In this document: positions 2,475 through 52,908 of the stretch, piece by piece
Layout of the letters: each line of letters begins with the position of its first letter
How positions within the stretch are numbered: position 1 is the stretch's first letter
Assembly: GCA_964016885.1 (NCBI GenBank)
Contig: OZ024741.1
Span: 47,802,001-47,866,000 of the forward strand
DNA: 64,000 bases
Source of the DNA: Eledone cirrhosa
Taxonomy: Eukaryota
Direction of reading: 5' to 3'
The notes under the pieces: generated by a model
The model's database searches: none
The model's input: the letters and a program-made list of their open reading frames with translations, nothing else
What the model was told of the DNA's origin: nothing
Program-made: the position numbers and the translations under genes

Positions 2475-3392
2475 TATTAGAAAGATCGAGTATCGAAAAA
2501 TCGGCGCACAAGTTCACGATAAACGAAATTCGACATGAGCGGCAGAGGGCTCAATAATTCAGATGAATCAGAGCTATAACTATCGTTAAAATACCGTCAC
2601 ATATAGAACAAGTCTACAATCAACCATACGATTTAAAATCGATAGAGGAAGATTCGGGACAAACAGATAAAAAATATCAATAAAACAATACGTCAATAAT
2701 TTAAATGAATGTAAAATCATACCCGGACCCACTAGACAGGTGTTAAATCTAGCTTCATGGGTTTCTGTAAATCCTTAGACTGTACTCTATCAGCTCACAT
2801 ATAAATATAAAAGCCTACTAGAGCAAGCGGAACGGAGGTTTACTTTCTCAACGAGTTTTTTCCTGGCGGCAGAGGAGCCAACTACCAGTGAAAAACGCAC
2901 ATGGCATTAGACAAGGGAGATGACCCCTATATCCGCGAAAACAATTCGAGTGAATGTGGAAATACACATATCGAATTAGAGTGCTCAATAGACATGTTAT
3001 AATAAAACAAAAGCTATTCATCACTCAATAGAATCGACAAAAAATGAGCAATAAAATTAACTGGTGGATAGCTATGTCCAGAGCTAAAAATATTAGAAAG
3101 ATCGAGTATCGAAAAATCGGCGCACAAGTTCACGATAAACGAAATTCGACATGAGCGGCAGAGGGCTCAATAATTCAGATGAATCAGAGCTATAACTATC
3201 GTTAAAATACCGTCACATATAGAACAAGTCTACAATCAACCATACGATTTAAAATCGATAGAGGAAGATTCGGGACAAACAGATAAAAAATATCAATAAA
3301 ACAATACGTCAATAATTTAAATGAATGTAAAATGAATGTAAAATGAATGTAAAATGAATGTAAAATGAATGTAAAATGAATGTAAAATCATA
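2474..3392 (-). mobile_element. Non-coding tandem element, 616-nt period, about 1.4 copies, retrozyme-like
   Basis: 2475-2721 recurs at 3091-3392. Flanked by (TA)n on both sides. Six-fold AAATGAATGTA stutter at 3319-3384. Strand inferred from the HHR-like motif at 2722-2793. Confidence 0.65.
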
Positions 3393-3408
3393 TTTATATA
3401 TATATATT

Positions 3409-3502
<94 letters not shown>

Positions 3503-3562
3503 TATATATATATATATATTTATTTATATATATATATTTATATATATATATTTATATATATA

Positions 3563-6210
<2,648 letters not shown>

Positions 6211-10350: not shown

Positions 10351-10369
10351 TAATCTGTTATTTTAATAA

Positions 10370-10409
<40 letters not shown>

Positions 10410-10425
10410 ATTTATATATATATAT

Positions 10426-12638
10426 TTCGTTTCTGAATTTGTTTAGCAAGATTCTTTATCTGAAATCGTGTGTTGAAACCGATATTGTTATACTTTGGGA
10501 GGGTCATGTTGCCAATAAGAAACACATGCACCAGTTGCTTTCACTTCAATTTATTATATATTTATAAATTTATAAATTTATAAATTTACAAACTTATAAA
10601 TTTCTGGTTGGTTGGTTGGTTCCACAACCAGATAGTTGTTTATATATAGTCATAGTCCTTTCGTCACACACTCTGTGACCTCTTCAGTGACTGGGGATTC
10701 CTTTCCTTTGTTTCTGTGCCTTTCCTTTCTTCTATCCTACGCCATTTTGTTTCTGTGTGTGTGTGTTGTGTGCTCAGTTTGCGCATGCGCCACATCCGGG
10801 TGTCTGTGTGTGTTTGTGTTCATTTATCTATTTGTTTATTTATTTATTTATTTATTGTTGGTTGGTTGTTTGTTCTATGTGTGTGTGTGTTTTCATTTTG
10901 TCCTGTTTGTATTTTCATTTTGTCCTTAATTGTAAGTTGTGATGTTGCTGTTCCACTCATATTTTCTATTTAATTTTGGTTTTAATTCTTTTATGCTTAC
11001 TGCCTCTGTAATTTGTCTAAACATTGCATCTTTTCTGTGTGTGGATTCTATTTTTATTTCTATGTTCTCTAGTCTACCCCTGTGTTCTATCTTAGCATGT
11101 TGGTAGAGCACAGATGATTCTTTATTATCTTGGAGGTCTCGCCAGTGTTCATTTATTCGTTCCCCTATACTACGAGCTGTCTCACCTATGTACACTATAT
11201 TTTTGTTTCTACATTGTCCTTCTGTACATCTTATGCTATACACTACATTTCTAGTTTTACAGTTAATATGGGGGCTTATTTTACAGGTTATACATTTCTT
11301 ATCTATACATGAGGGTCTTTGGAACGGGTATGTCTTGCTAATAAGTGTTTTTACGGAGGTACCTGGTCTTTCTACTATCTTAATATTGAGATTATGTTTA
11401 TTTATGGCCCTTCTAAATTTGTAGGCTAGTTCGCCTCTAGGGGTTGTATTAATGAACATTACACTCTGGTATTTATTGCTATCATACCATGAGTTTATTC
11501 TATTGGCCTTGTTCCTAGTTCTTTCTATTCTATTCCAAAATTTGCTCCTATACAAGGGGCAGGTCCCATTTATGTCATTATTTACCATTTTTTCCCATTT
11601 GGTTCTGGCTCCTTTATACACTCTGATTCTATCTCTCTGATTGTAGCCAGAGAACTGCATACGGTGGATGAAGTGTTGTATGTGTCTCTCTAGTTCTTCG
11701 GGGTTGCACATGCGGGACACATTTCTCATCACCCGTACCAAATCCGCAATCAGTATGTTGATTTTGGTATGGTCCGAAATGGCCGAGTTTCGGTGGATCA
11801 GATGTTTGGAAGTCATGGGTTTGGCATAATGGGAATGGAGGATTTGTTTTTGGTTGTTAATGGTATCTAACCAGAGCTGTGTCTAATACAGGTAATCGAT
11901 GGTTGGGGTGTCTACTTGGGTAGTCTATAGTAACTCTAATGCTCTGGTGGATGGAGTTTGCTATTTGCTGGATGCTTTCCATTGTGTTTTTCTCTAGTTC
12001 CTGACTGTTCTTTAGTGGGGGTGTCTTAACTACGATGTTTATATCATCTACGTAGCGGGAGTACATTATCAGGGTTAAGCTGTCTTCTAATTGTTCTTTA
12101 AGTTTTTGTTTAAGTCTACTGTCCCACCATACCATGAATAAGTTAGCTATGTCGCCTGCAATGCTAACACCAATGGCTGCTCCTTCCTCTTGGGCATATG
12201 TTTTACCATTAAATTTGAACATATGTTCCTTAAGGGTTAATTTTATGTTGGCCCCTACCGCATGTGCAATCATTTTCTTTAGTTCATCGTGGTTTTCGGG
12301 TGTCCGTATGGCTCTGGTCCACCCGTTCCATCTATCTGTGTGGGTTTTCTTGGCCATTGAGGTAATGGTAGGTGGTCTGCCTCTTGCTGGTCTTGTAGGG
12401 CACAGGTTGCTAAGGTCATAAGTGTCTAGGTAACTATTACTATGGGTAAGCTTAAGTAGAAGTCCCAGCTCACTGGTATCAATCCCACGGAACTCAACCT
12501 TGCTCTCGCTGATCATTTCTACGCATTTCTCCACAGCAAAATCCACGTCAATAGATGGATACAGGGACACAACATCCATACTGCCTATTATGCAGTTTGT
12601 TAGGTCCCCAGATCGGTTACTCGCGCCGATTCTGCTGA
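10426..12638 (-). mobile_element. 5'-truncated PLE (family N) with RT and GIY-YIG, frameshift near 11875, HHR at 10648-10692
   Basis: Near-identical to 38615-40877. YVDD motif; VYSIRC..YIGET..ERINEH. Confidence 0.92.
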
Positions 12639-18680: not shown

Positions 18681-19859
18681 TATATATATATATGTAGATA
18701 AATCTACCAAGAGTTTACGGTAGTGTCCAATCCGTATGAAGAACTCAATGTATTCCGGATATCATGGAAAGAAGAGATGTAATGAAAAACCACTTTCGGT
18801 GAAAGATAAACGGTATACAGAGTCAAGATAAAATATTAAACAAATAATGAATAAAACAATTCCTTATATTAAACAAAAAAAGTTCATTATTTAACGATCG
18901 TTTCTAGGGTATATATGTGTTATAATTGGTATGCATATTCAACAGATCTATGTACAAAATTATACAAAATTATACAAATTATCAAGATTAAATATACATA
19001 CCTAACACATATATACGCCGTCTTCAGAAATAATGAAGTATATTTATTGATAATAACAACAATTCAAAATTTCAGTTCAAAATTGACCAATGAAAACACA
19101 AAGGGTTAAAAGCAGTTCGGTGTGTGTATATACATGTAAAATCCTTACACATATTTTACAAAAATGTATGTATAACTTGTATACGCATACTAAAAAGATG
19201 GATGCAAACACAAAATTTCAAGGTTAATATCTCTGTAAGCTTAAAATGCGCTGATAAGATGCGCATTGATACTTATGGAGTCAAGCATATAAATATATTT
19301 TTTCATACTCACACATATCAGTACAATCACACATACACGCGCTCATATGCATAAATATACACATAACCACGAACATACAAACACACACACACACCCACTC
19401 ACATTTATATATGTGGATATAAAATCATAAGCACATAGATATTAAATCACTCACATAAAACACTGGCACACACATTTCAAGATCAAGATACAGAAATTAG
19501 GTGGGAGGGGGGGGGGGGAGGGGTCAGTATTCAATTGTCTGAGCAGACTGCCTAATATAAATGTATCTATAAATTAAGAAAAATAAAAAAATAAAACAAT
19601 AAAATATAATAAATATAATATAATATACATACACATACAGATATATACACATACATACATGTACGCGCACATAGAAATATTTACGCATACACACATACAC
19701 ACATACATATACAGTCATACACATACATACACTTACACGAACATACACATACACATATATAAAGATATATATATACACACACACACACACACGCAACACA
19801 TACACACATACACATATATATAAAAAATAAATAATAAAGATATATATCCATATACATAT

Positions 19860-19902
<43 letters not shown>

Positions 19903-19981
19903 CATACACATACATCGAAATATACATACACATACATACACACATACATGTACATACATGTACATACATATACGGACATCG

Positions 19982-20030
<49 letters not shown>

Positions 20031-20507
20031 TAGACATATAGATACATACACACACAACTTACATACACACATACATATATATAGATGTACATTCATACAT
20101 AGAATTAGATATATAATCATACATACATATGTACCTACTTATACTCATATATATAAATACATACGCTTCCATATATGCTTATATACATAAAAAACACTAG
20201 AACCTCACCTAACTCAGACATACAAATAAAAATAATAATAAAAAAATAATAATAAAAAGGCATATGTATATACATACACACACGCATTAATAGAGATATA
20301 TATATATACACACATACATACACATATATATATATATACATATATATACACATACATATATATATATATAAATATATACACACACATACAATCATACATA
20401 TATATATATATATATATATATAAAAACATATATATCCACACACTCATACCACCATAAATACACATACAAACACCCACATATATATATATATATATATATA
20501 TACACAC

Positions 20508-20548
<41 letters not shown>

Positions 20549-20836
20549 TAAAAAACAGACATGCACATATATATATATATATACTTTTTTACACTTATAT
20601 ATACACATATTATATACACATACACAACCTCACTTATACACATATACACATAAGTTATATTATAATAATAAAGAATAATATACATATATATATATACATA
20701 TACATATATATATATATATATATACATACATACATACACATACATACATACACATAAACATATACATACATAAATACACACATACGAATAAAGACATATA
20801 TTCACACATAGACACCTATATATATATCTATATATC

Positions 20837-20896
<60 letters not shown>

Positions 20897-22034
20897 GATA
20901 CATATACACACTCACATATATATATGTGTATGTGTGTGTGCGCACATACACATATATACACACACACATACAAACACACACAAACACATACATATGCATA
21001 CGTGCACACACACACACATATATCACATAGATACGAAGATAAACATATAAATAGAGAGACATACATATATATACAACACAAATACACATACATACATACA
21101 CACGCATATACATATACATATATATATATACATATATATATATTCCTATATATACAAGCATACACATACATACACATATATACACATACATACACATATA
21201 CATACAACACATTCACATACACATACATATATAATGCATATATATACATATATATACATACATATGTACACTCATATATACACACGCAATCTTACATTCA
21301 TATTTGCATGCGCATATATGTATTTTTATATTTAGATATAAATACCCAAACCTATATAGACACCTACCTACATATATATTCATACATAGGCGCTTACAAA
21401 TACAGATGATAATAGTATGGGGGAAAGGGGGGGTTTGGAGAAGGGGATCAAAGTAAATATATGTTTCAAGAAACATATAATATAATATTTTCCGTATCTT
21501 TATTCAATGTATGTTCTTACATATTTTCAGTGCTAGGAAATACGACAAACAAGAACTAAGGCAAAATCTATGCATCTCAAAATAAATAAGTATACCATTA
21601 ATCATATGTTAACTAAACCAAAGATAGTCAACATATTGATTTCTAAGGTGTAAATTAGTTAGGTTTATAATATTTGAAGCAGAATTTTGAAGTCAAACAG
21701 TAGTAGATTATTAATTACAGTATAACTAAATTAAAGTTAATAACGTTATGGTATCAATATTAGGAAATGAATTTAGTAATATGGAAAAGAAACCCAAATA
21801 AAAATAAAATAAAGTATTACATCGGTAGTAGCATATAAATTATATGTTAACTAAATTAAAAATTATATATTTATTTCAATAGTATATGTTAATTAGTATA
21901 TGTTAATTAGGTATACAATACATAAAGCAGATATTGTATTTCATCAATAGCACAATATAATTATATGCAAATAGAAATCAAAATTAATACGCATACATAT
22001 ACATATACATACACATACACATATACATACATAT

Positions 22035-22075
<41 letters not shown>

Positions 22076-22608
22076 TACACATATATACATACATACAGAT
22101 ACACATACACACACACACATACACATACACATATACATATACATATCTTTTTCAAAAAATTGCACAGAATATATTAACTAGGTATATATCCAAAACACAT
22201 CCCATTCTATGATTACATGACGTTCTGCAATTCGTCTGTATAAGGATACTAATTTTAAGCAAATTAAAATTAAAATTTTTAGGTTGATTAAAACTAAAAC
22301 CAAATAATAAATATATTTCCAAAATGTATATTAATTAGGTCTATAATACTAAAAATTATTTCTCTGTCATTGGATACACGATATTATTTTGTTATATTTT
22401 ATCTGTAAAAGAGTTATAATAAAAGGTTTAAATAAATTAAAATTAATCTATAAATTAAATTACTAAGTATATATTAGTAATATTTAAAGGTTTTTCACAA
22501 TTTATGATTACATAATATTTTATATTCTCATCTGTAATGAAATATTAATTAAATTAAATTTATAGGTTAACTAACATTTAAATTAAATTAATTTCTAGAA
22601 TAATGTTA

Positions 22609-23270
22609 TTAATTAGGTTTATAATATTTAAATGTTTTTTTTAGTTTATGATTACACGATATAATTAATTCCTGTCGTTTATTTAATAAGATATCCTTAG
22701 ACTTCATTATTTCAAATAGTTCTTGGGAACATAATCTACATTCCTTTCTATTATTTTGATAAGGGGTGGCTCTTTTGAGCACACTCCAGGTCAAATCATA
22801 TTTTATATTCTTATTTTTATAACTATTGATTTTTTCTGCTAGAGATGTAGTATTAGCCAGTGCGGCATTTTTAAAACTATGCTTGTGGGTATTAAACCTT
22901 GTCTTAAAATTGTTAGAGGTAGCTCCTATATATGAGCAAATAGAATCTTTAGTTTTAACATTACATTTATAGACTATGTTGTTAACAAGACAATTCCCTT
23001 TTAATGGGCAGTTTGCTTTGTTTCTACAGTTACATCCTTTCGTTAATTCTGTATTTGAGGAGATATTATGGTTAATTTGATGTACTGGTGGTATACTTAT
23101 GGTTTTCTTACATTTATATGCATTATATGCACTTATATTTTGTTTTATGTTATTTGTTGTAGAATATGAGAATTTAACTGTAGACCTATTTAAGATTTGA
23201 TGGTATTTGTGGTTTGGCGGGAAGTTTTTCTCAAGGATATAAAAAAATTTTTTAGCAATATTATCCTTAA
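22609..23270 (-). pseudogene. PLE GIY-YIG endonuclease fragment (left arm)
   Basis: CNCRNKANCPLKGNC, IVYKC..YIGAT..FKTRFNTH, CRLC..E, LN..E..CNH. Confidence 0.88.
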
Positions 23271-23493
23271 TGATAATATTGATAAAATTTTTAATTTTAA
23301 TGATAATATTGATAATATTAATTTTAATGATAATATTGATAATATTAATTTTAATGATAATATTGATAATATTAAAAAAATTTTTTAGCAATATTATCCT
23401 TAATGATAATATTATCCTTAATGATAATAATGATAAAATTTTTTAGCAATATTATCCTTAATGATAATATTATCCTTAATGATAATATTATCC

Positions 23494-24155
23494 TTAATGA
23501 TAATATTGCTAAAAAATTTTTTTATATCCTTGAGAAAAACTTCCCGCCAAACCACAAATACCATCAAATCTTAAATAGGTCTACAGTTAAATTCTCATAT
23601 TCTACAACAAATAACATAAAACAAAATATAAGTGCATATAATGCATATAAATGTAAGAAAACCATAAGTATACCACCAGTACATCAAATTAACCATAATA
23701 TCTCCTCAAATACAGAATTAACGAAAGGATGTAACTGTAGAAACAAAGCAAACTGCCCATTAAAAGGGAATTGTCTTGTTAACAACATAGTCTATAAATG
23801 TAATGTTAAAACTAAAGATTCTATTTGCTCATATATAGGAGCTACCTCTAACAATTTTAAGACAAGGTTTAATACCCACAAGCATAGTTTTAAAAATGCC
23901 GCACTGGCTAATACTACATCTCTAGCAGAAAAAATCAATAGTTATAAAAATAAGAATATAAAATATGATTTGACCTGGAGTGTGCTCAAAAGAGCCACCC
24001 CTTATCAAAATAATAGAAAGGAATGTAGATTATGTTCCCAAGAACTATTTGAAATAATGAAGTCTAAGGATATCTTATTAAATAAACGACAGGAATTAAT
24101 TATATCGTGTAATCATAAACTAAAAAAAACATTTAAATATTATAAACCTAATTAA
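23494..24155 (+). pseudogene. PLE GIY-YIG endonuclease fragment (right arm)
   Basis: Same protein as the left arm. Confidence 0.88.
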
Positions 24156-24688
24156 TAACATTATTCTAGAAATTAATTTAATTTAAATGTTAGTTAACCT
24201 ATAAATTTAATTTAATTAATATTTCATTACAGATGAGAATATAAAATATTATGTAATCATAAATTGTGAAAAACCTTTAAATATTACTAATATATACTTA
24301 GTAATTTAATTTATAGATTAATTTTAATTTATTTAAACCTTTTATTATAACTCTTTTACAGATAAAATATAACAAAATAATATCGTGTATCCAATGACAG
24401 AGAAATAATTTTTAGTATTATAGACCTAATTAATATACATTTTGGAAATATATTTATTATTTGGTTTTAGTTTTAATCAACCTAAAAATTTTAATTTTAA
24501 TTTGCTTAAAATTAGTATCCTTATACAGACGAATTGCAGAACGTCATGTAATCATAGAATGGGATGTGTTTTGGATATATACCTAGTTAATATATTCTGT
24601 GCAATTTTTTGAAAAAGATATGTATATGTATATGTGTATGTGTATGTGTGTGTGTGTATGTGTATCTGTATGTATGTATATATGTGTA

Positions 24689-24729
<41 letters not shown>

Positions 24730-25867
24730 ATATGTATGTATATGTGTATGTGTATGTATATGTATATGTATGCGTATTAATTTTGATTTCTATTTGCATA
24801 TAATTATATTGTGCTATTGATGAAATACAATATCTGCTTTATGTATTGTATACCTAATTAACATATACTAATTAACATATACTATTGAAATAAATATATA
24901 ATTTTTAATTTAGTTAACATATAATTTATATGCTACTACCGATGTAATACTTTATTTTATTTTTATTTGGGTTTCTTTTCCATATTACTAAATTCATTTC
25001 CTAATATTGATACCATAACGTTATTAACTTTAATTTAGTTATACTGTAATTAATAATCTACTACTGTTTGACTTCAAAATTCTGCTTCAAATATTATAAA
25101 CCTAACTAATTTACACCTTAGAAATCAATATGTTGACTATCTTTGGTTTAGTTAACATATGATTAATGGTATACTTATTTATTTTGAGATGCATAGATTT
25201 TGCCTTAGTTCTTGTTTGTCGTATTTCCTAGCACTGAAAATATGTAAGAACATACATTGAATAAAGATACGGAAAATATTATATTATATGTTTCTTGAAA
25301 CATATATTTACTTTGATCCCCTTCTCCAAACCCCCCCTTTCCCCCATACTATTATCATCTGTATTTGTAAGCGCCTATGTATGAATATATATGTAGGTAG
25401 GTGTCTATATAGGTTTGGGTATTTATATCTAAATATAAAAATACATATATGCGCATGCAAATATGAATGTAAGATTGCGTGTGTATATATGAGTGTACAT
25501 ATGTATGTATATATATGTATATATATGCATTATATATGTATGTGTATGTGAATGTGTTGTATGTATATGTGTATGTATGTGTATATATGTGTATGTATGT
25601 GTATGCTTGTATATATAGGAATATATATATATGTATATATATATATGTATATGTATATGCGTGTGTATGTATGTATGTGTATTTGTGTTGTATATATATG
25701 TATGTCTCTCTATTTATATGTTTATCTTCGTATCTATGTGATATATGTGTGTGTGTGTGCACGTATGCATATGTATGTGTTTGTGTGTGTTTGTATGTGT
25801 GTGTGTATATATGTGTATGTGCGCACACACACATACACATATATATATGTGAGTGTGTATATGTATC

Positions 25868-25927
<60 letters not shown>

Positions 25928-26213
25928 GATATATATATATATATATAGGTGTCTATGTGTGAATATATGTCTTTATTCGTATGTGTGTATTTATGTATGT
26001 ATATGTTTATGTGTATGTATGTATGTGTATGTATGTATGTATATATATATATATATATATGTATATGTATATATATATATGTATATTATTCTTTATTATT
26101 ATAATATAACTTATGTGTATATGTGTATAAGTGAGGTTGTGTATGTGTATATAATATGTGTATATATAAGTGTAAAAAAGTATATATATATATATGTGCA
26201 TGTCTGTTTTTTA

Positions 26214-26252
<39 letters not shown>

Positions 26253-26731
26253 GTGTGTATATATATATATATATATATATATGTGGGTGTTTGTATGTGT
26301 ATTTATGGTGGTATGAGTGTGTGGATATATATGTTTTTATATATATATATATATATATATATGTATGATTGTATGTGTGTGTATATATTTATATATATAT
26401 ATATGTATGTGTATATATATGTATATATATATATATATGTGTATGTATGTGTGTATATATATATATCTCTATTAATGCGTGTGTGTATGTATATACATAT
26501 GCCTTTTTATTATTATTTTTTTATTATTATTTTTATTTGTATGTCTGAGTTAGGTGAGGTTCTAGTGTTTTTTATGTATATAAGCATATATGGAAGCGTA
26601 TGTATTTATATATATGAGTATAAGTAGGTACATATGTATGTATGATTATATATCTAATTCTATGTATGAATGTACATCTATATATATGTATGTGTGTATG
26701 TAAGTTGTGTGTGTATGTATCTATATGTCTA

Positions 26732-26778
<47 letters not shown>

Positions 26779-26857
26779 CGATGTCCGTATATGTATGTAC
26801 ATGTATGTACATGTATGTGTGTATGTATGTGTATGTATATTTCGATGTATGTGTATG

Positions 26858-26900
<43 letters not shown>

Positions 26901-27718
26901 ATATGTATATGGATATATATCTTTATTATTTATTTTTTATATATATGTGTATGTGTGTATGTGTTGCGTGTGTGTGTGTGTGTGTATATATATATCTTTA
27001 TATATGTGTATGTGTATGTTCGTGTAAGTGTATGTATGTGTATGACTGTATATGTATGTGTGTATGTGTGTATGCGTAAATATTTCTATGTGCGCGTACA
27101 TGTATGTATGTGTATATATCTGTATGTGTATGTATATTATATTATATTTATTATATTTTATTGTTTTATTTTTTTATTTTTCTTAATTTATAGATACATT
27201 TATATTAGGCAGTCTGCTCAGACAATTGAATACTGACCCCTCCCCCCCCTCCCACCTAATTTCTGTATCTTGATCTTGAAATGTGTGTGCCAGTGTTTTA
27301 TGTGAGTGATTTAATATCTATGTGCTTATGATTTTATATCCACATATATAAATGTGAGTGGGGGTGTGTGTGTGTTTGTATGTTCGTGGTTATGTGTATA
27401 TTTATGCATATGAGCGCGTGTATGTGTGATTGTACTGATATGTGTGAGTATGAAAAAATATATTTATATGCTTGACTCCATAAGTATCAATGCGCATCTT
27501 ATCAGCGCATTTTAAGCTTACAGAGATATTAACCTTGAAATTTTGTGTTTGCATCCATCTTTTTAGTATGCGTATACAAGTTATACATACATTTTTGTAA
27601 AATATGTGTAAGGATTTTACATGTATATACACACACCGAACTGCTTTTAACCCTTTGTGTTTTCATTGGTCAATTTTGAACTGAAATTTTGAATTGTTGT
27701 TATTATCAATAAATATAC

Positions 27719-27873
27719 TTCATTATTTCTGAAGACGGCGTATATATGTGTTAGGTATGTATATTTAATCTTGATAATTTGTATAATTTTGTATAATTTT
27801 GTACATAGATCTGTTGAATATGCATACCAATTATAACACATATATACCCTAGAAACGATCGTTAAATAATGAA
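27719..27873 (+). ncRNA. Type I hammerhead with ~115-nt stem II; copies at 18883-19037(-) and 51018-51160(+)
   Basis: TTCATTATTT-CTGAAGA-[long hairpin]-GAAA-CGATCG-TT-AAATAATGAA: 10-bp stem I and palindromic stem III. Confidence 0.8.
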
Positions 27874-27925
27874 CTTTTTTTGTTTAATATAAGGAATTGT
27901 TTTATTCATTATTTGTTTAATATTT

Positions 27926-28019
<94 letters not shown>

Positions 28020-29183: not shown

Positions 29184-29249
29184 TATATATAAATATATAT
29201 ATATATATTTATATAAATATATATATATATTTATATAAATATATATATA

Positions 29250-29316
<67 letters not shown>

Positions 29317-29343
29317 ATATTTATATATACATATATATATATT

Positions 29344-29436
<93 letters not shown>

Positions 29437-29447
29437 ATATATATATT

Positions 29448-29826
29448 TCATCATCATCATCATCATCATCACCGTTTTACGTCCGTTCTTCCACGCTAGC
29501 ATGGGTTAGACGGGTTGTCCTGTTGTGGGCAGTGTCTGGTCGGCTGACCATGCCTTGCTCATACAGGAACTGATCTGGCTTGATTTCTACAGCTGGATGC
29601 CCTTCCTAACACCAACCTCATTTACAGTGAGTGCTGGGTGCTTTTTCGTGGCGCCTACACGTCCACTTTACAGTGTGGGCTGGGTGCTTTTTTGCCGTGG
29701 CACCTCCACGACCACCTTGCGGGGGGGGGGGGGGGGCATATTGTTTATATGCTTCAGCATGTACCCATGGGAGGTCGGGTACCCTGTATTACTGCGTGAC
29801 GCCAGAAGTCACGGTCGTGTGTCATT
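29448..29826 (-). mobile_element. RTE LINE 3' fragment (subfamily 1) with (GAT)n tail
   Basis: Near-identical reverse complement of 5742-6104. Confidence 0.93.
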
Positions 29827-29864
29827 TATATATATATATTTATATTTATATATATATTTATATT

Positions 29865-29935
<71 letters not shown>

Positions 29936-29960
29936 TTATATTTATATATATATTTATATT

Positions 29961-29999
<39 letters not shown>

Positions 30000-30002
30000 A
30001 TT

Positions 30003-30038
<36 letters not shown>

Positions 30039-30068
30039 TATTTATATATTTATATATATATATATTTA

Positions 30069-30109
<41 letters not shown>

Positions 30110-30132
30110 TTATATATATATATATTTATATT

Positions 30133-30229
<97 letters not shown>

Positions 30230-30258
30230 TTATATATTTATATATATATATTTATATT

Positions 30259-30291
<33 letters not shown>

Positions 30292-30310
30292 ATATATTTA
30301 TATATATATA

Positions 30311-30424
<114 letters not shown>

Positions 30425-30628
30425 TTATATATATATTTATATTTATATATATATTTATATTTATATATATATATATATTTATACTTATATATATATATAT
30501 ATATATTTAAATTGAAACAAAATGAAAACGAAATTTCATTTCTCACTCTTAGTATGGCACTTACTTAAATGTAAGTATGCATGTATACGTACATACATAT
30601 ATGTATACAGACGTACAGTAGCATGCAC

Positions 30629-30661
<33 letters not shown>

Positions 30662-30814
30662 TATACATATGCATACAGGTACACATACATATATGCACGT
30701 ATCAGTTTAGCGGCGCTAACGTCGCTTTGTTCGTTTGTAAACAAACTGAACAGCCTGAATTTATGCCATACGGTGTTAAGGCAACCACGTCACCTTTTTG
30801 TTCAACACTGACAC

Positions 30815-30867
30815 AGGAACGATGTACTAGTTTCAAGCTTGTTAGCTATCATCAGCACCGTTTACCC
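30815..30867 (-). ncRNA. Type I hammerhead ribozyme (element A, unit 1)
   Basis: GGG-UA-AACGGUG-CUGAUGA-U AGCU AACA AGCU U-GAAA-CUAG-UA-CAUCGUU-CCU. Confidence 0.88.
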
Positions 30868-31102
30868 ATCTGCCAGATAGTTGAACGTTCGAAAGTATAT
30901 ACTTTCCTTATGAAAATTAACGGCTGAGCAGCCTAATTTGCATATTGAGTGAGTTAAATCGGTTAGGCATACCGAAAACGATAAATTGAAACAAAATGAA
31001 AACGAAATTTCATTTCTCACTCTTAGTATGGCACTTACTTAAATGTAAGTATGCATGTATACGTACATACATATATGTATACAGACGTACAGTAGCATGC
31101 AC

Positions 31103-31135
<33 letters not shown>

Positions 31136-31288
31136 TATACATATGCATACAGGTACACATACATATATGCACGTATCAGTTTAGCGGCGCTAACGTCGCT
31201 TTGTTCGTTTGTAAACAAACTGAACAGCCTGAATTTATGCCATACGGTGTTAAGGCAACCACGTCACCTTTTTGTTCAACACTGACAC

Positions 31289-31341
31289 AGGAACGATGTA
31301 CTAGTTTCAAGCTTGTTAGCTATCATCAGCACCGTTTACCC
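31289..31341 (-). ncRNA. Type I hammerhead ribozyme (element A, unit 2)
   Basis: Identical to 30815-30867. Confidence 0.88.
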
Positions 31342-31491
31342 ATCTGCCAGATAGTTGAACGTTCGAAAGTATATACTTTCCTTATGAAAATTAACGGCTG
31401 TATACATATATGTATGTACGTATACATGCATACTTACATATATATATTTATATATATATATTTTTATATATATATATATTTATATATATAT

Positions 31492-33710
31492 AAAGCTATT
31501 TTTAATAATGCATCCCCCTACTATAATAAAGCGCTCCAAAATAGCGGTTTTAGCGAACCGATTAAGTACATACCTAACTATACTAACTCTATTAAACATA
31601 AAAATAGGAAAAGAAAAATAATCTGGTTCACACCCCCCTATCTCTAGCAGTTAAAACTAATGTAGGCAAAAAATTCCTTGAGCTCCTAGATAAACATTTC
31701 CCTAGAACACATAGATACTATAAGATCTTTAACAGAAATTGTGTCAAAATTAGCTATTCCTGCGGTCCCCCTATTAAGTCCTATATCCTCAACAAAATAT
31801 CACCTAGAGAAAATCAAACTTGCTCCTGTAGAATCAAAAGTGAATGCCCATTACAAGGTAAATGCAACACCAAAGCCATTGTATATGCGGCTCAAGTGAC
31901 AACCATCAGCAACAACCATCCAGCCACCAGTGAACGATATGTGGGTATGACGCAAGACAAATTCAAAACGCGTTATTACTCACATGTCGCATCCTTTCGA
32001 CATCCAGAAAAAAGATTTACAACAGCTCTGGCTAGCAGAATTTGGGATTTGAAAGACCAAGGCATCCAATATAAATTAGATTGGTCAATTTTGAACCAAT
32101 CTAAAGAATATGCTAGAGGAACAAGAAAATGCACGCTCTGCATAAATGAAAAATATTGGATATTGCAAAATCTAAAATCACCAAAGACCTGCCTGAACAC
32201 AAAGACGGAAATTTTCACCAGTTGCCCACACATGAAATCACACCTGCTTTCCAGCTCATATAAACTTAACACACTTTCAGATACTTATCCTCCATAAACT
32301 CTTATTATTCTCTTTTTAATTACCCTTTCTGACTTACTTTCATTTTTATTTTTATCCTTGTCAATAATTTCATTTATTTTTATTCTTATTTTTATTTTTT
32401 ATTTTTTATTTTTTATTTTTTATTTTTTATTTTTTATTTTTACTTCACATCCATCAATAACCCCCTCCCCCGCTTTATTCTCCGATTCACTTTCCATTTT
32501 TTACTTCCCCTTTTTTTTACTTCCCTTTTTCCTTCACTAACTGATTAGACTTGTCATTTGTGTTTTCCAATCCAGATATATTTTTCATTTTTATTTTTTT
32601 TAATTTTATTTTTATTTTTTTATTTTTGCGCAGCCAATCTTACAATTTTATATTTGTACTTACTTATCCACAAGTTTTTTACACCCTGTATCAATATGGC
32701 TGAACGTCTTAATGTGTGTATACTTTCTATATATGTACATGAGCGACTACGTATGTGCGCGCGCGTATGTATATATATATATATATATATGTGTGTGTAT
32801 ATATGTGTGTGTGTGTATGTATATATTATGCGTATGTGTATGTGTCCTTATATCCGTGTTTTGACATCTAGGTTTTATGTTTTGTTCCTTTTTCCTCCTC
32901 CCCCCCCCCCCTTTTTACTTACTCTTTTTTATGCGTGTGCAGGCAAACAGGTCAATATGCGTGAGTGTAAGTATGTGTGTGTGTGTGTGTGTGTATGTAC
33001 GTATCGAACGTATGGATGTGTAAGTGTGCGTGTGTATATAAGCATGTATATTTTTGCGTTTCTTTTGTGAGATATGCGTGTCTGTGTATGTATGTACCCT
33101 TTTTTGTCTTCTTTTCTTTAATTTTTTCTTTCTAAAAATTTTTTCTTTCTAATTTATTGTTACATTTTTATAAATATATCGAGATTGATACTTTGCTTTA
33201 ATTATTACACTCCCTTACCTCTTTTACTTCCGCATCTAAGTGTACGTGTGTGTATTCATATTCTTATGATGTATCTATTCTGTCTGTAGATTACAGACAT
33301 ACAGATACATTTGCCCTAAATTTTATATTTACGCACACTTTTTCACTATACGTATACATATGTGCATACACATATATGCACATCTGTGAGCGTATATACA
33401 TACATATACACACACCTAACTATATTTCTTGATAGATTTTTATATATTTCAATTTCTAATTCATTTGTCTATATCCCTTTTTTTTTTGATTTTCTTGATG
33501 AGACTTTCCAAGTATTTACCCATGTTTTATATTGCCTCGTCTGACGAACGAATGAAGACGTTTCTTTAGTATTCGCCTCATTCGGGAAACCTCTGGTAAT
33601 GAGGTAATTATATTGTATTGATTTTTATACATTAGATTTTGCTCTGATACTTACATAGAGCACTCTTCACTTCTATGACCTTTTCTGTTTCCAACGGAAA
33701 TTTCAATACT
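31492..33710 (+). mobile_element. 5'-truncated PLE (family HB, related to HA): thumb and GIY-YIG remnants, 3' UTR, HHR
   Basis: KRKIIWFTPP and ERYVGMTQDKFKTRYYSH..CTLC..EK (ORF 31896-32297). Confidence 0.9.
33531..33608 (+). ncRNA. Type I hammerhead ribozyme (family HB)
   Basis: ATTGCCTCGT-CTGACGA-A CGAATGA..TCATTCG G-GAAA-CCTCTGG-TA-ATGAGGTAAT. Confidence 0.82.
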
Positions 33711-38579: not shown

Positions 38580-39162
38580 ATTTTAATTTTGATATATATA
38601 TATATATATATATATCGTTTCTGAATTTGTTTAGCAAGATTCTTTATCTGAAATCGTGTGTTGAAACCGATATTGTTATACTTTGGGAGGGTCATGTTGC
38701 CAATAAGAAACACACGCACCAGTTGCTTTCACTTCAATTTAATTTATTAAATATTTATAAATTTCTGGTTGGTTGGTTGGTTCCACAACCAGATAGTTGT
38801 TTATATATATATAGTCATAGTTCTTTCGTCACACACTCTGTGACCTCTTCAGTGACTGGGGATTTTGTTCTTCGTTTCTGTGTCTTTCCTTTCTTCTATC
38901 CTACGCCATTTTGTTTGTGTGTGGGTTGCGTGCTCAGTTTGCGCATGCGCCACATCCGGGTGTCTGTGTGTGTTTGTGTTCATTTTTCTATTTATCTATT
39001 TATATTTTTCTATTTGTTTGTTTATTTATTTATTTATTGTTGGTTGGTTGTTTGTTCTATGTGTGTGTGTGTTTTCATTTTGTCTTGTGTGTGTTTTCAT
39101 TTTGTGTGTGTTTTCGATTGTAAGTTGTTTGTTCTATGTGTGTGTGTGTTTTCATTTTGTCC

Positions 39163-41871
39163 TTAATTGTAAGTTGTGATGTTGCTGTTCCACTCATATT
39201 TTCTATTTAATTTTGGTTTTAATTCTTTTATGCTTACTGCCTCTGTAATTTGCCTAAACATTGCGTCTTTCTTGTGTGTGGATTCTATTTTTATTTCTAT
39301 GCTCTCTAATTTACCCCTGTGTTCTATCTTAGCATGTTGGTAGAGCACAGATGATTCTTTACTATCTTGGAGGTCTCGCCAGTGTTCATTTATTCGTTCC
39401 CCTATACTACGAGCTGTCTCACCTATGTACACTACATTTTTGTTTCTACATTGTCCCTCAGTACATCTTATGCTATATACTACATTTCTAGTTTTACAGT
39501 TAATATGGGGGCTTATTTTACAGGTTATACATTTCTTATCTATACATGAGGGTCTTTGGAACGGGTATGTCTTGCTAATAAGTGTTTTTACGGAGGTACC
39601 AGGTCTTTCTACTATCTTAATATTGAGATTATGTTTCTTTAGGGCCCTTCTAAATTTGTAGGCTAGTTCGCCTCTAGGGGTTGTATTGATGAACATTACA
39701 CTCTGGTATTTATTGCTATCATACCATGAGTTTATTCTATTGGCCTTGTTCTTAGTTCTTTCTATTCTATTCCAAAATTTGCTCCTATACAAGGAGCAGG
39801 TCCCATTTATGTCATTATTTACCATTTTTTCCCATTTGGTTCTGGCTCCTTTATACACTCTGATTCTATCTCTCTGATTGTAGCCAGAGAATTGCATACG
39901 GTGGATGAAGTGTTGTATGTGTCTCTCTAGTTCTTCGGGGTTGCACATGCGGGACACATTTCTCATCACCCGTACCAAATCCGCAATCAGTATGTTGATT
40001 TTGGTATGGTCCGAAATGGCCGAGTTTCGGTGGATCAGATGTTTGGAAGTCATGGGTTTGGCATAATGGGAATGGAGGATTTGTTTTTGGTTGTTAATAG
40101 TATCTAACCAGAGCTCTGTGTCTAGTACAGGTAATCGATGGTTGGGGTGTCTACTTGGGTAGTCTATAGTAACTCTAATGCTCTGGTGGATGGAGTTTGC
40201 TATTTGCTGGATGCTTTCCATTGTGTTTTTCTCTAGTTCCTGACTGTTCTTTAGTGGGGGTGTCTTAACTACGATGTTTATATCATCTACGTAGCGGGAG
40301 TACATTATCAGGGTTAAGCTGTCTTCTAATTGTTCATTAAGTTTTTGTTTAAGTCTACTGTCCCACCATACCATGAATAAGTTAGCTATGTCGCCTGCAA
40401 TGCTAACACCAATGGCTGCTCCTTCCTCTTGGGCATATGTTTTACCATTAAATTTGAACATATGTTCCTTAAGGGTTAGTTTTATGCTGGCCCCTACCGC
40501 ATGTGCAATCATTTTCTTCAGTTCATCGTGGTTTTCGGGTGTCCGTATGGCTCTGGTCCACCCGTTCCATCTATCTGTGTGGGTTTTCTTGGCCATTGAG
40601 GTAATGGTAGGTGGTCTGCCTCTTGCTGGTCTTGTAGGGCACAGGTTGCTAAGGTCATAAGTGTCTAGGTAACTATTACTATGGGTAAGCTTAAGTAGAA
40701 GTCCCAGCTCACTGGTATCAATCCCACGGAACTCAACCTTGCTCTCGCTGATCATTTCGACGCATTTCTCTACAGCAAAATCCACGTCAATAGATGGATA
40801 CAGGGACACAACATCCATACTGCCTATTATGCAGTTTGTTAGGTCCCCAGATCGGTTACCCGCGCCGATTCTGCTGAGGAGGTCCTCCGTGCTGTCACAC
40901 ACATCTGGGGACATCTCAATGATGGGGCGTATGATCAGGGAGAGGAAGTAGGACAGTCTGTAGTTACTAGCAATGTTAGCCCCACAGACTGGCCGTGTTG
41001 GTGGTCCCGCGACAGGGTCCCAGCCCGTTTTATGGTCTTTACGAAGCCCATACAACGCCGGCACGTCATTGTTCCAGGCCTGGAAGTTGTTGGCAGTCCT
41101 TTTGTTGGGCTGCATTATATTTGTCCACATCACCATATGGGCATTGAGGGTTTTTTCTCTATCCTCATGCTCCTGTGGTGTTACCTCTCTTGTGTTAGTG
41201 ATGTGGGGTTGCATTGCCTGGATGTAGTTTGGCAGGCTGTCAACCGACATTCTGCCAGACTTGTCTGTTGGAAAGCATGCTATCTCTCCATTACGCGAGC
41301 GCTGCATGAGCTTACGCAAGCCATTTGCAGATTCTTCTCCCAGTTGCTGGGCCTCTATTCTATTATGCTTCTTGCTATACTGTTCTATAATATTTCTAAG
41401 TTCGGATTTAGCTATACTAAATTGTGCCTCTGTTTGTTCATCGACCTGCGACGGCAACTGCGTGCGTTTGTTAAATGGCAAAGTCGTGGCGTGGACTCGT
41501 CGTAGGTCGAATGATTTATCGGAGGGGTTATAAAACGGAGAGTTCCAGGCTGCTGCTTTATGTGTACTAGTGCTATTGTTATTGTTAGTTGTGTTGTTTC
41601 TATTTCCACCAACAGCAGCAGCCTCAGCTTCATGGTTGTTTCTATGTCTCTCATAATTACTCCTGTCTCTTTCCACTGGCTCAATGTTGTTATCTACCCT
41701 ATTTTGTGTGTCTGTGTGTTCGTCTTGGTTATTCTCTTTGTCCTTAGTCTCCCATCTCCTTTTCCTTTTCCTTTTAATCCTATTACTTTCTCTTATTTCT
41801 CTGATTTCTGTGCTACTGTCATTACTTGTTTTCTGTGTCTGTGTGTTTGTTAAGATTGTGGTGAGAGGCAT
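39163..41871 (-). CDS. PLE reverse transcriptase plus Cys-rich linker and GIY-YIG endonuclease (902 aa)
   Basis: [74 protein letters not shown]. Confidence 0.92.
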   Translation of the reverse strand: MPLTTILTNTQTQKTSNDSSTEIREIRESNRIKRKRKRRWETKDKENNQDEHTDTQNRVDNNIEPVERDRSNYERHRNNHEAEAAAVGGNRNNTTNNNNSTSTHKAAAWNSPFYNPSDKSFDLRRVHATTLPFNKRTQLPSQVDEQTEAQFSIAKSELRNIIEQYSKKHNRIEAQQLGEESANGLRKLMQRSRNGEIACFPTDKSGRMSVDSLPNYIQAMQPHITNTREVTPQEHEDREKTLNAHMVMWTNIMQPNKRTANNFQAWNNDVPALYGLRKDHKTGWDPVAGPPTRPVCGANIASNYRLSYFLSLIIRPIIEMSPDVCDSTEDLLSRIGAGNRSGDLTNCIIGSMDVVSLYPSIDVDFAVEKCVEMISESKVEFRGIDTSELGLLLKLTHSNSYLDTYDLSNLCPTRPARGRPPTITSMAKKTHTDRWNGWTRAIRTPENHDELKKMIAHAVGASIKLTLKEHMFKFNGKTYAQEEGAAIGVSIAGDIANLFMVWWDSRLKQKLNEQLEDSLTLIMYSRYVDDINIVVKTPPLKNSQELEKNTMESIQQIANSIHQSIRVTIDYPSRHPNHRLPVLDTELWLDTINNQKQILHSHYAKPMTSKHLIHRNSAISDHTKINILIADLVRVMRNVSRMCNPEELERHIQHFIHRMQFSGYNQRDRIRVYKGARTKWEKMVNNDINGTCSLYRSKFWNRIERTKNKANRINSWYDSNKYQSVMFINTTPRGELAYKFRRALKKHNLNIKIVERPGTSVKTLISKTYPFQRPSCIDKKCITCKISPHINCKTRNVVYSIRCTEGQCRNKNVVYIGETARSIGERINEHWRDLQDSKESSVLYQHAKIEHRGKLESIEIKIESTHKKDAMFRQITEAVSIKELKPKLNRKYEWNSNITTYN

Positions 41872-42843
41872 TGAATGCGTGTGTGTTGTTGTTGTTGATG
41901 TGTGTTGTTGTTGTCTCCGTGTGTGTGTGTGTTATCGTTGTTGTGTGTGTTGTTATTGTTGTTTGTGTTTGCGTGTCTGTTGTTGTTGTATCTGGGTATG
42001 TTGCTATTGTTGTTGTTATTGTTGTTTGTGTCTGTGTGTCTGTTGTTGTTGGGATGTGTGTTGTATATGTGTGTGCGTATATTGTTGCTTTTGTTTTTGT
42101 TTTTGTTTTTGATGCTCCAGCGTAGTTTCGTAAATGATTTTTCTATTTCTGACAGACAACTAATCATATTTACCTTCTTGAATGTCGCAAATTTGGGTGG
42201 CAGACGTAACACAGACATTTCATTATTATCTATTTCTGTGTTTCCATAGATGTTGGTATTTTCATTGTTGAACTCTTCAGATAATGAGGTGTCGGCCATG
42301 TTGATACCGTCAATTTTGTCGGGATATCTATTGGTATACTCTATAGTATCCCGATTTAGCTTTGCCTGTTTAAGCCACTTTAATTTTCTGTTAAAGTGCT
42401 TATTACATTCTTGAGTAATGTACTGTTCTTCGGGACGTATAAGGCTTATAAATGTTAGTTTTTCTGCTGGTGTGGTGATTTTAGATATTTCATCTATTAG
42501 GTTACGCTTTAGTTTTTCTTGATGACTTAATTCTCTATAGATCTTCTTTTTTATGTTTAGAATTAAATTTCGTTTTAGCCTATCTGCTTGTTTTTTGGTG
42601 AGTTGTAATCTTCTAACGTCGGTATTGATGGTGTTGGTGTAGATTCTAGAAGTGGTGCACAGTTTTATGAAGTGTAGTTGTCGAGATGTTATGGTTTTTC
42701 GTAGACAACAGAACATGGTGGTTTTCAGTATCTTGTTAGCCTGGCTAAGGCTTACGATATTTCGTTTCTGAATTTGTTTAGCAAGATTCTTTATCTGAAA
42801 TCGTGTGTTGAAACCGATATTGTTATACTTTGGGAGGGTCATG
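41850..42843 (-). CDS. N-terminal part of the PLE ORF (basic, helical), out of frame with the RT
   Basis: ATG at 42843 lies inside the pLTR. The E.SVLRLPPKF..IEKSFTKLRW motif is typical of PLE N-termini. Ends in an N/T/H-rich microsatellite. Confidence 0.7.
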
Positions 42844-42994
42844 TTGCCAATAAGAAACACACGCACCAGTTGCTTTCACTTCAATTTAATTTATTAAATA
42901 TTTATAAATTTCTGGTTGGTTGGTTGGTTCCACAACCAGATAGTTGTTTATATATATATAGTCATAGTTCTTTCGTCACACACTCCATTTCGTC

Positions 42995-49155: not shown

Positions 49156-49227
49156 GCCGTGATCGTCTAGTGGTTAGGACCCCACGTTGTGGCCGTGGTA
49201 ACCCAGGTTCGAATCCTGGTCACGGCA
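49156..49227 (+). tRNA. tRNA-His: tRNA-His (GUG)
   Basis: 72-nt cloverleaf, acceptor stem GCCGTGA/TCACGGC, anticodon loop TTGTGGC, T loop GGTTCGAATCC, TTTT at 49237-49240. Confidence 0.95.
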
Positions 49228-51510: not shown

Positions 51511-51565
<55 letters not shown>

Positions 51566-52460
51566 TAAACAATTAAGTTAAAAATGTACATCTACATATG
51601 CATACTGAAATACTAGTGTGTATATGAATACACACACGTATACATATGTAGGTGTACCAAGTCTTTCACTGGTCGCTTTACAGTGAGCGGCCCAGCTATT
51701 CTGTATGTAAACACACAGACAAACCGGTTTTTAGAGTCATACTGGTTTTGGGGGAACACCTTCCCCCTATTCTCCAGAAACAGAAAGCCAGACAAGGAAT
51801 ATTGAACTAGTTTCGTTGTTGTTACAACTCATCAGCAATATTTACCTATCTACCGGCCTTTCTGGAGAATTGTAAAAGCACATATCGTTATATGCTTTTT
51901 CTATGAAAATTAGTAGTGGGCAGACTAATTTGCATAGAGTGTGAGTACAAATAACGAAACGAAATTTAATTTCGTTTCGTTATTTGTTTTTATCGTCTCC
52001 GCTGAACCGGTGCGTACTCACACTCTATGCAAATTAGTCTGCCCACTACTAATTTTCATAGAAAAAGCATATAACGATATGTGCTTTTACAATTCTCCAG
52101 AAAGGCCGGTAGATAGGTAAATATTGCTGATGAGTTGTAACAACAACGAAACTAGTTCAATATTCCTTGTCTGGCTTTCTGGAGAATAGGGGGAAGGTGT
52201 TCCCCCCAAAACCAGTATGACTCTAAAAACCGGTTTGTCTGTGTGTTTACATACAGAATAGCTGGGCCGCTCACTGTAAAGCGACCAGTGAAAGACTTGG
52301 TACACCTACATATGTATACGTGTGTGTATTCATATACACACTAGTATTTCAGTATGCATATGTAGATGTACATTTTTAACTTAATTGTTTAAGCGTCAGT
52401 CATACAAAAGTGAGTTACAAACGAAACGAAATTTAATTTCGTTTCGTTATTTGTTTTTAT
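51566..52460 (+). mobile_element. Retrozyme-like non-coding element B: 467-nt unit with terminal redundancy plus an inverted arm
   Basis: 51953-51993 recurs at 52420-52460. 51566-51948 is the reverse complement of 52014-52391. (TA)n flanks. Confidence 0.82.
52115..52167 (+). ncRNA. Type I hammerhead ribozyme (element B); inverted copy at 51795-51847(-)
   Basis: AGG-UA-AAUAUUG-CUGAUGA-GUUGU AACA ACAAC-GAAA-CUAG-UU-CAAUAUU-CCU. Confidence 0.9.
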
Positions 52461-52737: not shown

Positions 52738-52842
<105 letters not shown>

Positions 52843-52844
52843 AT

Positions 52845-52908
52845 AACAATATCTGTTTCGACACACGATTTCATATAAAAAACCTCGCTAAACTAATTCA
52901 TCGCCGCT
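52845..52908 (+). mobile_element. Tiny 3'-tail fragment of a family-N-related PLE; last 16 nt repeated at 52989-53004
   Basis: AACAATATCTGTTTCGACACACGATTTCATATAAA resembles the family N pLTR tail AACAATATCGGTTTCAACACACGATTTCAGATAAA. Confidence 0.65.

Follow-up and report, generated by a model that had tools for sequence, protein, structure and literature searches.

A tandem hammerhead insertion in a TA array of Eledone cirrhosa with the predicted features of a non-LTR retrozyme and the end anatomy of Penelope-like elements

How does a non-coding unit that carries a hammerhead come to lie almost twice over, letter for letter, within an array of TA repeats, and from what kind of RNA was it copied? 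The question is raised by an insertion, here called element A, in a 64,000-nt stretch of the Eledone cirrhosa assembly (contig OZ024741.1, positions 47,802,001 to 47,866,000; hereafter the window, in whose numbering all positions are given). Element A and the array that holds it are made up as follows.

29827..30507, no strand: (TA)n target array next to the RNA-3' end of element A
30508..31400, minus strand (RNA sense): direct arm, 1.88 identical 474-nt units
31400-30982, minus strand: 5'-truncated unit, part of the direct arm
30981-30508, minus strand: full unit, part of the direct arm
30508..30568, minus strand: "tail", 61 nt between the two inferred RT start sites, direct arm only
30520..30541, minus strand: terminal hairpin, with the 3' terminus about 12 nt beyond it
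30573..30705 (approximate), minus strand: long imperfect TA/CA-rich hairpin
31398..31439, plus strand: inverted arm, 42 nt, its outer end being the inferred second start site
31440..31492, no strand: (TA)n array bordering the inverted arm on its outer side

The direct arm has an exact period of 474 nt: 30508-30926 is identical to 30982-31400 over 419 nt (100%), the internal TA tract included, which gives 1.884 units and agrees with an earlier sequence-only reading that had described 1.9 identical units. The repeat stops exactly at the inversion joint. Here the inverted arm, which is the exact reverse complement of 30569-30610 (equal to 31043-31084) and begins 61 nt upstream of the RNA 3' terminus, overlaps the direct arm by CTG; a 3-nt overlap of this kind is weak evidence by itself (P of approximately 0.064 by chance, from base composition). 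TA arrays lie on both sides, and the earlier description of a 42-nt inverted end joined through CTG within (TA)n was therefore accurate. Each unit abuts the next directly, with no LTR-internal-LTR layout. The unit is non-coding, with 35% GC; its longest ATG frames (41 codons in the hammerhead sense and 76 in antisense) both run through the TA-rich tract, no endless frame runs round the predicted circle (474 is divisible by 3), and no RT plus GIY-YIG ORF is present in element A.

Two predicted ribozymes lie in the direct arm, one unit apart, and delimit the predicted monomer.

30818..30862, minus strand: type I hammerhead, downstream copy, core 30855, H17 at 30825
31292..31336, minus strand: type I hammerhead, upstream copy, core 31329, H17 at 31299
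30825..31298, minus strand: predicted cleavage-to-cleavage monomer, 474 nt, 35% GC

The predicted cleavage triplet is GUA on the minus strand in both copies, and the H17 positions match the cleavage sites that had been proposed near 30824 and 31298. The hammerhead descriptor was matched in 1 of 20,000 dinucleotide shuffles of the unit, and over the 64-kb window it gave 16 matches compared with none in 30 shuffles of the window. Rfam did not reach its gathering score on element A (HH9, 18.5 bits, E 0.14, cut-off 52), and pattern scans for the hammerhead gave 0 matches in metagenome contigs and 0 in viral contigs. Rfam matches to microRNAs were also seen on element A; these arise from the TA hairpin, fall far below gathering scores and were rejected.

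Stem I comprises 7 bp, stem II has a U.U at 10.1-11.1 followed by 3 bp and a 6-nt loop, and stem III has 2 bp enclosing 2 nt; these 6 nt are a palindrome through which two copies can pair (-4.8 kcal/mol). The U.U occupies a position where a G-C pair is typical and weighs against the predicted cleavage. Axolotl retrozyme families provide examples both of a palindromic helix III and of a U.U at the base of helix II; for a ribozyme with this mismatch, only 22% cleavage of the monomer in one hour is reported (PMC7229834). Folded as a circle, the predicted monomer reaches -157 kcal/mol with 68% of positions paired (z -9.2 compared with 40 shuffles; z -5.5 for the opposite strand), part of this energy being supplied by the long TA-rich hairpin. 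The active hammerhead fold in this circle is predicted to cost 2.2 kcal/mol over the minimum, and the circles of element A and of a relative in the same window, element B, are both predicted to permit it within 1.5-2.2 kcal/mol.

51565..52460, plus strand: element B, related family with a 467-nt unit, (TA)n on both sides
51565-51948 (about 380 nt): inverted arm of element B, hammerhead core 51835
51953-52460: direct arm of element B, 1.09 units, hammerhead core 52127

The units of A and B are 60% identical, with an alignment score of 299 compared with a best of 147 in 200 shuffles. Despite this distance, the predicted ribozyme stems are kept by compensatory changes: three of the seven pairs in stem I and three of the four positions in stem II are changed on both sides and still paired. 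RNAalifold on A and B found two-sided changes in 31 of 100 pairs, in a structure predicted from the same two sequences. The fourth stem II position is the U.U of A, for which B has the canonical G-C at 10.1-11.1; stem III of B is an 8-nt palindrome, and both inverted arms of B are long, with a small extra piece near 51754-51781 in one of them. The unit junction is homologous in the two elements, a hairpin lies at the same place in B as the long TA/CA-rich hairpin of A, and the 3' terminus of B aligns with that of A within 1 nt, approximately 12 nt past the terminal hairpin. The inverted arm of B begins 68 nt upstream of the terminus, compared with 61 nt in A.

Copies elsewhere were counted in sequencing run X1, possibly the source of the window itself, by matching contigs to 30680-31100. 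Element A is matched by 5442 of 17,142,217 X1 contigs, of which 1313 are at least 99% alike, 1756 lie at 95-99%, 1913 at 90-95% and 460 under 90%, making this a large, diverse and multicopy family. The sequence-only reading had held that copies at a single locus would speak against it; these counts exclude that case, and copies joined to TA exist both in an X1 loose end and as element B. The unit junction is likewise common property of the family. A diverged X1 contig (record 8, 30916-31023, 8 differences) extends across it, two loose-end groups (13 and 25 contigs, among the 8 of 117 loose ends listed) read out past a variant of it, and X1 depth is continuous across it in element A. In a further group of 43 contigs, also among the 8 of 117 listed, a variant form of the terminus is followed by a TA run, with a median length of 12 and an agreement of 0.7; fewer than about half of the contigs can reach the TA flank. 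The comparison excluded 31049-31100 as repeat, and the second start site is therefore defined from A and B only. Two further joints, each in one contig with unknown letters between, were left out of the evidence.

Words of the stretch occur in 20 of the 24 listed runs (15 studies), and among the four runs compared bulk presence was found only in X1: X3 held a single 35-nt piece (5 differences), X15 held two records, both at depth 4, and X23 none in 12,836,656 reads, approximately 1 in 100 of the run and too little for a test. No RNA run is recorded among those that contain the stretch, a fact that says nothing about expression. One deep X1 contig has a variant with 6 nt inserted at 30716, and at 30956-30981 a subfamily in this run carries another hairpin.

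In A, in B and in other copies the RNA 3' end is a fixed site just beyond the hairpin and not a random permutation. The earlier reading had taken the position of the ends away from the cleavage site as a sign of a circle. That argument fails because autonomous PLEs (Penelope-like elements) also start away from their own hammerhead; their reverse transcription is reported to begin internally, downstream of an uncleaved hammerhead (PMC11167929).

The fixed ends point instead to the machinery that made the insertion. The window is full of 5'-truncated elements whose ORFs group with RT and GIY-YIG clusters (one source) and whose ends carry type I hammerheads, and the label PLE-type used here rests on these two properties; Pfam named two of eight neighbour ORFs, one of them below cut-off, and a PDB search of the ORFs returned only a weak intron-endonuclease match (E 0.17). 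Nine inverted pairs, comprising A, B and seven others, were picked by hand from a self-comparison of the window and are not a census. In all nine, both outer ends are RNA-3' ends on TA, and one arm is longer by 54-134 nt before the TA run, the other by at most 16 nt. The proposal that element A was mobilised in trans by PLE-like machinery is strengthened by this common end anatomy, on which we consider movement of the retrozyme by a PLE enzyme very probable. The copies at 10360-12638 and 31493-33705 lack an inverted partner nearby. The ends of one PLE-type family (13115/18230/34346/38393) recur at 35-44 or 109-112 nt after H17. The tails of A (61 nt) and B (68 nt) exceed the published 30-40 bp (PMC8557442) but match those of the neighbours. 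No homology between element A and any PLE end was found in the 64-kb window; the terminal hairpin matches a PLE ORF over 16 nt (E 1.0), which was taken as chance.

Set against described systems, element A has at the level of sequence every feature of the metazoan non-LTR retrozymes, as these are reported (PMC7229834; bioRxiv 10.64898/2026.07.22.740005). Like them it is a non-coding tandem with one type I hammerhead per unit, GC content under 50% and no LTR organisation, it is multicopy and co-occurs with PLEs, and its predicted circle is highly paired with an accessible ribozyme. At 474 nt the unit is larger than the 170-400 nt given in PMC7229834 and falls within the 51-972 bp of the 2026 preprint. 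Cleavage and circles were demonstrated for published retrozymes, whereas for element A they are predicted. As far as consulted, the 2020 and 2026 papers make no mention of retrozyme insertions with fixed termini, with inverted ends or tails, or targeted to (TA)n, all of which element A has. In plant LTR retrozymes, type III hammerheads lie in LTRs round a unique core, which differs from the type I hammerheads and direct tandem of A. We conclude that element A is very probably one insertion of a non-autonomous, non-coding metazoan non-LTR retrozyme of a new family; the sequence-only reading did not give the system this name, under which it was already published (PMC7229834).

With PLEs and their pseudo-LTRs, as reported (PMC8557442; PMC11167929; PMC4209133), element A shares partial tandems, an inverted 5'-truncated copy, a tail at one end, an AT-rich or microsatellite target, a type I hammerhead upstream of the start sites and a start beside a stem-loop. 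It differs from PLEs in having no RT or GIY-YIG ORF, in a unit that closes on itself with a tail of 61-68 nt, and in the distance from predicted cut to terminus, which is 317 nt compared with 25-140 nt in the neighbouring PLE-type elements. The non-autonomous Chlamys PLEs of Chlamydomonas are likewise described as non-coding, moved by PLEs in trans and multicopy head to tail in microsatellites (PMC8557442; PMC9977147). According to those accounts most Chlamys lack hammerheads and have 3' sequence in common with an autonomous partner, whereas no such partner of A was found in the window.

A mechanism has to account for the tandem hammerhead unit, the conserved junction, the multicopy family, the fixed ends and the (TA)n targets observed above, and we propose the following. 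A tandem copy would be transcribed on the hammerhead strand, and two hammerheads, pairing through the palindromic stem III, would excise the 474-nt monomer, which a host ligase would close into a circle whose single hammerhead would be protected against re-cutting. To judge from the anatomy of the insertion, a Penelope-like RT/GIY-YIG protein acting in trans would then have cut both strands of the (TA)n array, and each DNA end would have primed cDNA at a fixed internal site, the two sites lying 61 nt apart on either side of the hairpin. One cDNA may have extended for 893 nt, nearly twice round the template, and the other may have stopped at 42 nt; their 3' ends would have annealed through CTG/CAG and been filled in. 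The same trace would be left by fold-back copying with endonuclease trimming, as suggested for tails by Craig et al. (PMC8557442). Parts of this scheme have published counterparts: the anole PLE protein is reported to cleave and extend both strands at AT-rich DNA and to begin copying at two internal positions, between which the tail lies (PMC11167929), and circles have been demonstrated for coral, mussel and axolotl retrozymes, for which PLEs were proposed as movers (PMC7229834). Copying from an RNA circle is plausible, and we put the probability of the whole account (retrozyme, PLE enzyme in trans, and ribozyme-made RNA circle as template) at about 0.58.

The step at which this account is most exposed is the template. 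The same element could have been moved by the same PLE enzyme from an uncleaved linear transcript of at least three identical units, the hammerhead being weak or irrelevant to movement. The earlier proposal that a circular or multimeric RNA had been copied stands insofar as the template was longer than one unit; identity of the units, which had been read as a mark of the circle, also fits a transcript of a homogeneous array, and arrays of up to 62 units or more are known in other animals. Several observations favour a linear template. Uncleaved RNA was the dominant substrate of the anole PLE in vitro, with 0 reads ending at the hammerhead site (PMC11167929), eight of nine Xenopus retrozyme dimers tested in vitro were reported as uncleaved (bioRxiv 10.64898/2026.07.22.740005), and A itself carries the U.U mismatch at the base of stem II. 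Against it, linear copying can only shorten arrays, and identical units within so diverse a family would therefore call for re-copying of one monomer at some point. The ribozyme stems, moreover, have been kept through compensatory change at 60% identity, and the four common X1 hammerhead variants fall at position 7, in loop II and in stem I, with none in the invariant core, a weak pattern given that only 18 variant sites are listed for X1. A circle also suits a template that spans two cleavage sites, because with a palindromic stem III cleavage is expected in multimers but not in monomeric circles, as described for palindromic helix III (PMC4209133). We therefore regard the circular template as likelier and the uncleaved multimer as possible but doubtful.

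A second alternative places the tandem at the DNA level: an insertion of monomer length was duplicated later by slippage or unequal crossover, or assembly created the tandem artificially. Identity of 100% would also fit a very recent event, Li et al. (2026) propose local amplification (bioRxiv 10.64898/2026.07.22.740005), and no long read across the locus was seen in the compared runs. A local duplication would have given a private junction, yet the junction of A is common to B and to diverged X1 contigs and depth runs continuously across it; B also exceeds one unit, and the repeat ends exactly at the inversion joint. We consider this explanation very unlikely. A third reading, in which an autonomous PLE left two 5'-truncated pseudo-LTR pieces that came by chance to lie in partial tandem, is scarcely credible and already largely refuted. 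PLE ends do have type I hammerheads, tails and inverted copies and survive mostly as short 5'-truncated pieces. On this reading, however, truncation would have placed the junction at random, and yet the junction is conserved; past the terminus the unit regains its hammerhead within 127 nt without entering an ORF, and in the hammerhead sense no ATG frame exceeds 41 codons, which consist of TA repeat. Element A may still descend from a pseudo-LTR.

How a retrozyme copied from such a circle is transcribed in the first place may be hinted at by two blocks that A and B have in common.

30933..30944, minus strand: 12-nt block, the longest that A and B share without a difference, candidate promoter element
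30760..30774, minus strand: short block, similar between the two elements, 169/184 nt downstream of the first

The first block contains a motif that we take to be an octamer, and the second resembles an snRNA proximal element. By shuffling alone the octamer arose in 318 of 5000 sequences from A and in 108 of 5000 from B, which makes it weak on its own, and the 12-nt block is also one arm of a conserved hairpin. The octamer-type promoter is thus a lead only. The block is missing from the 5'-truncated unit of A; because the truncated first unit lacks it, this copy may be unable to make circles if the promoter is real, and on such a layout only copies of approximately three units could regenerate them. 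A scan for the octamer block returned 15 loci, all of which matched only over the 20-23-nt seed and were attributed to chance. Newt satellite 2 is a hammerhead tandem repeat with a reported snRNA-type promoter (Coats, Zhang and Epstein 1994, as cited in PMC2220036), to which the octamer block conserved in A and B would be a candidate counterpart; a 2020 review assumed read-through transcription of retrozymes (PMC7761336). We tentatively suggest, as less likely than not, a fuller scheme, in which the PLE protein primes cut (TA)n at two hairpin-flanking sites and rolls round the ribozyme-made circle, the retrozyme having its own octamer-type, snRNA-like promoter. If this is true, the insertions of A and B would be a direct footprint of animal retrozyme movement, and transcription would be independent of read-through.

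The retrozyme kind, the rolling-circle model and PLE mobilisation are already published (PMC7229834, PMC4209133, PMC7761336), the case for PLE mobilisation of animal retrozymes having been made from co-occurrence, shared hammerheads and pseudo-LTR similarity (PMC7229834; bioRxiv 10.64898/2026.07.22.740005). The two families seen here carry the PLE signature itself, namely a fixed internal start, a tail offset, an inverted arm and a TA target, and lie in the window beside PLE-type insertions with the same offsets. The literature searched gave no account of retrozyme insertions with PLE-type termini, and the supplements of PMC7229834 and of the 2026 preprint may show such anatomy. A purified active PLE has been published (PMC11167929), which makes A and B defined substrates for asking whether a PLE RT rolls round a circle; if it does, this would also explain the partial tandems of PLEs.

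One of the PLE-type neighbours, at 39163-42875 (minus strand), is a near-complete coding region with overlapping frames of 341 and 922 codons, of which the 341-codon or first frame starts in the terminal repeat, and with a tail of approximately 55 nt, close to that of A; it is a candidate source of the enzyme. The cores at 38852 and 44758, which mark the end of the family with the 922-aa ORF, are hammerhead-like; one additional G precedes stem II, stem III has a loop of 2 nt, and the descriptor missed them. A stub at 52842-52905, lying in a TA array, is approximately 83% like only the tail of this family. At least five PLE-type families have their own type I hammerhead near the 3' end (8239/8376/49026; 13115/18230/34346/38393; 28120/28500; 28957/29056; 33541). 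The host's remaining repeats are similar to those of cephalopods.

In the same TA array as A, and head to head with it, lies a 5'-truncated PLE-type copy at 31493-33705 (plus strand) that has no inverted arm and is 67% identical in amino acids to the copy at 35857. The region 18828-27928 is a 9.1-kb, almost perfect palindrome formed by a PLE-type insertion with a 134-nt tail. A long RT ORF with a PHD finger occupies 3364-5814 (Pfam RVT_1, E 5e-32), and a 94% copy of its 3' end at 29184-29826 adjoins the TA array that holds A. An intact tRNA gene (49156-49227) sits between a hammerhead-bearing repeat end and a TA array.
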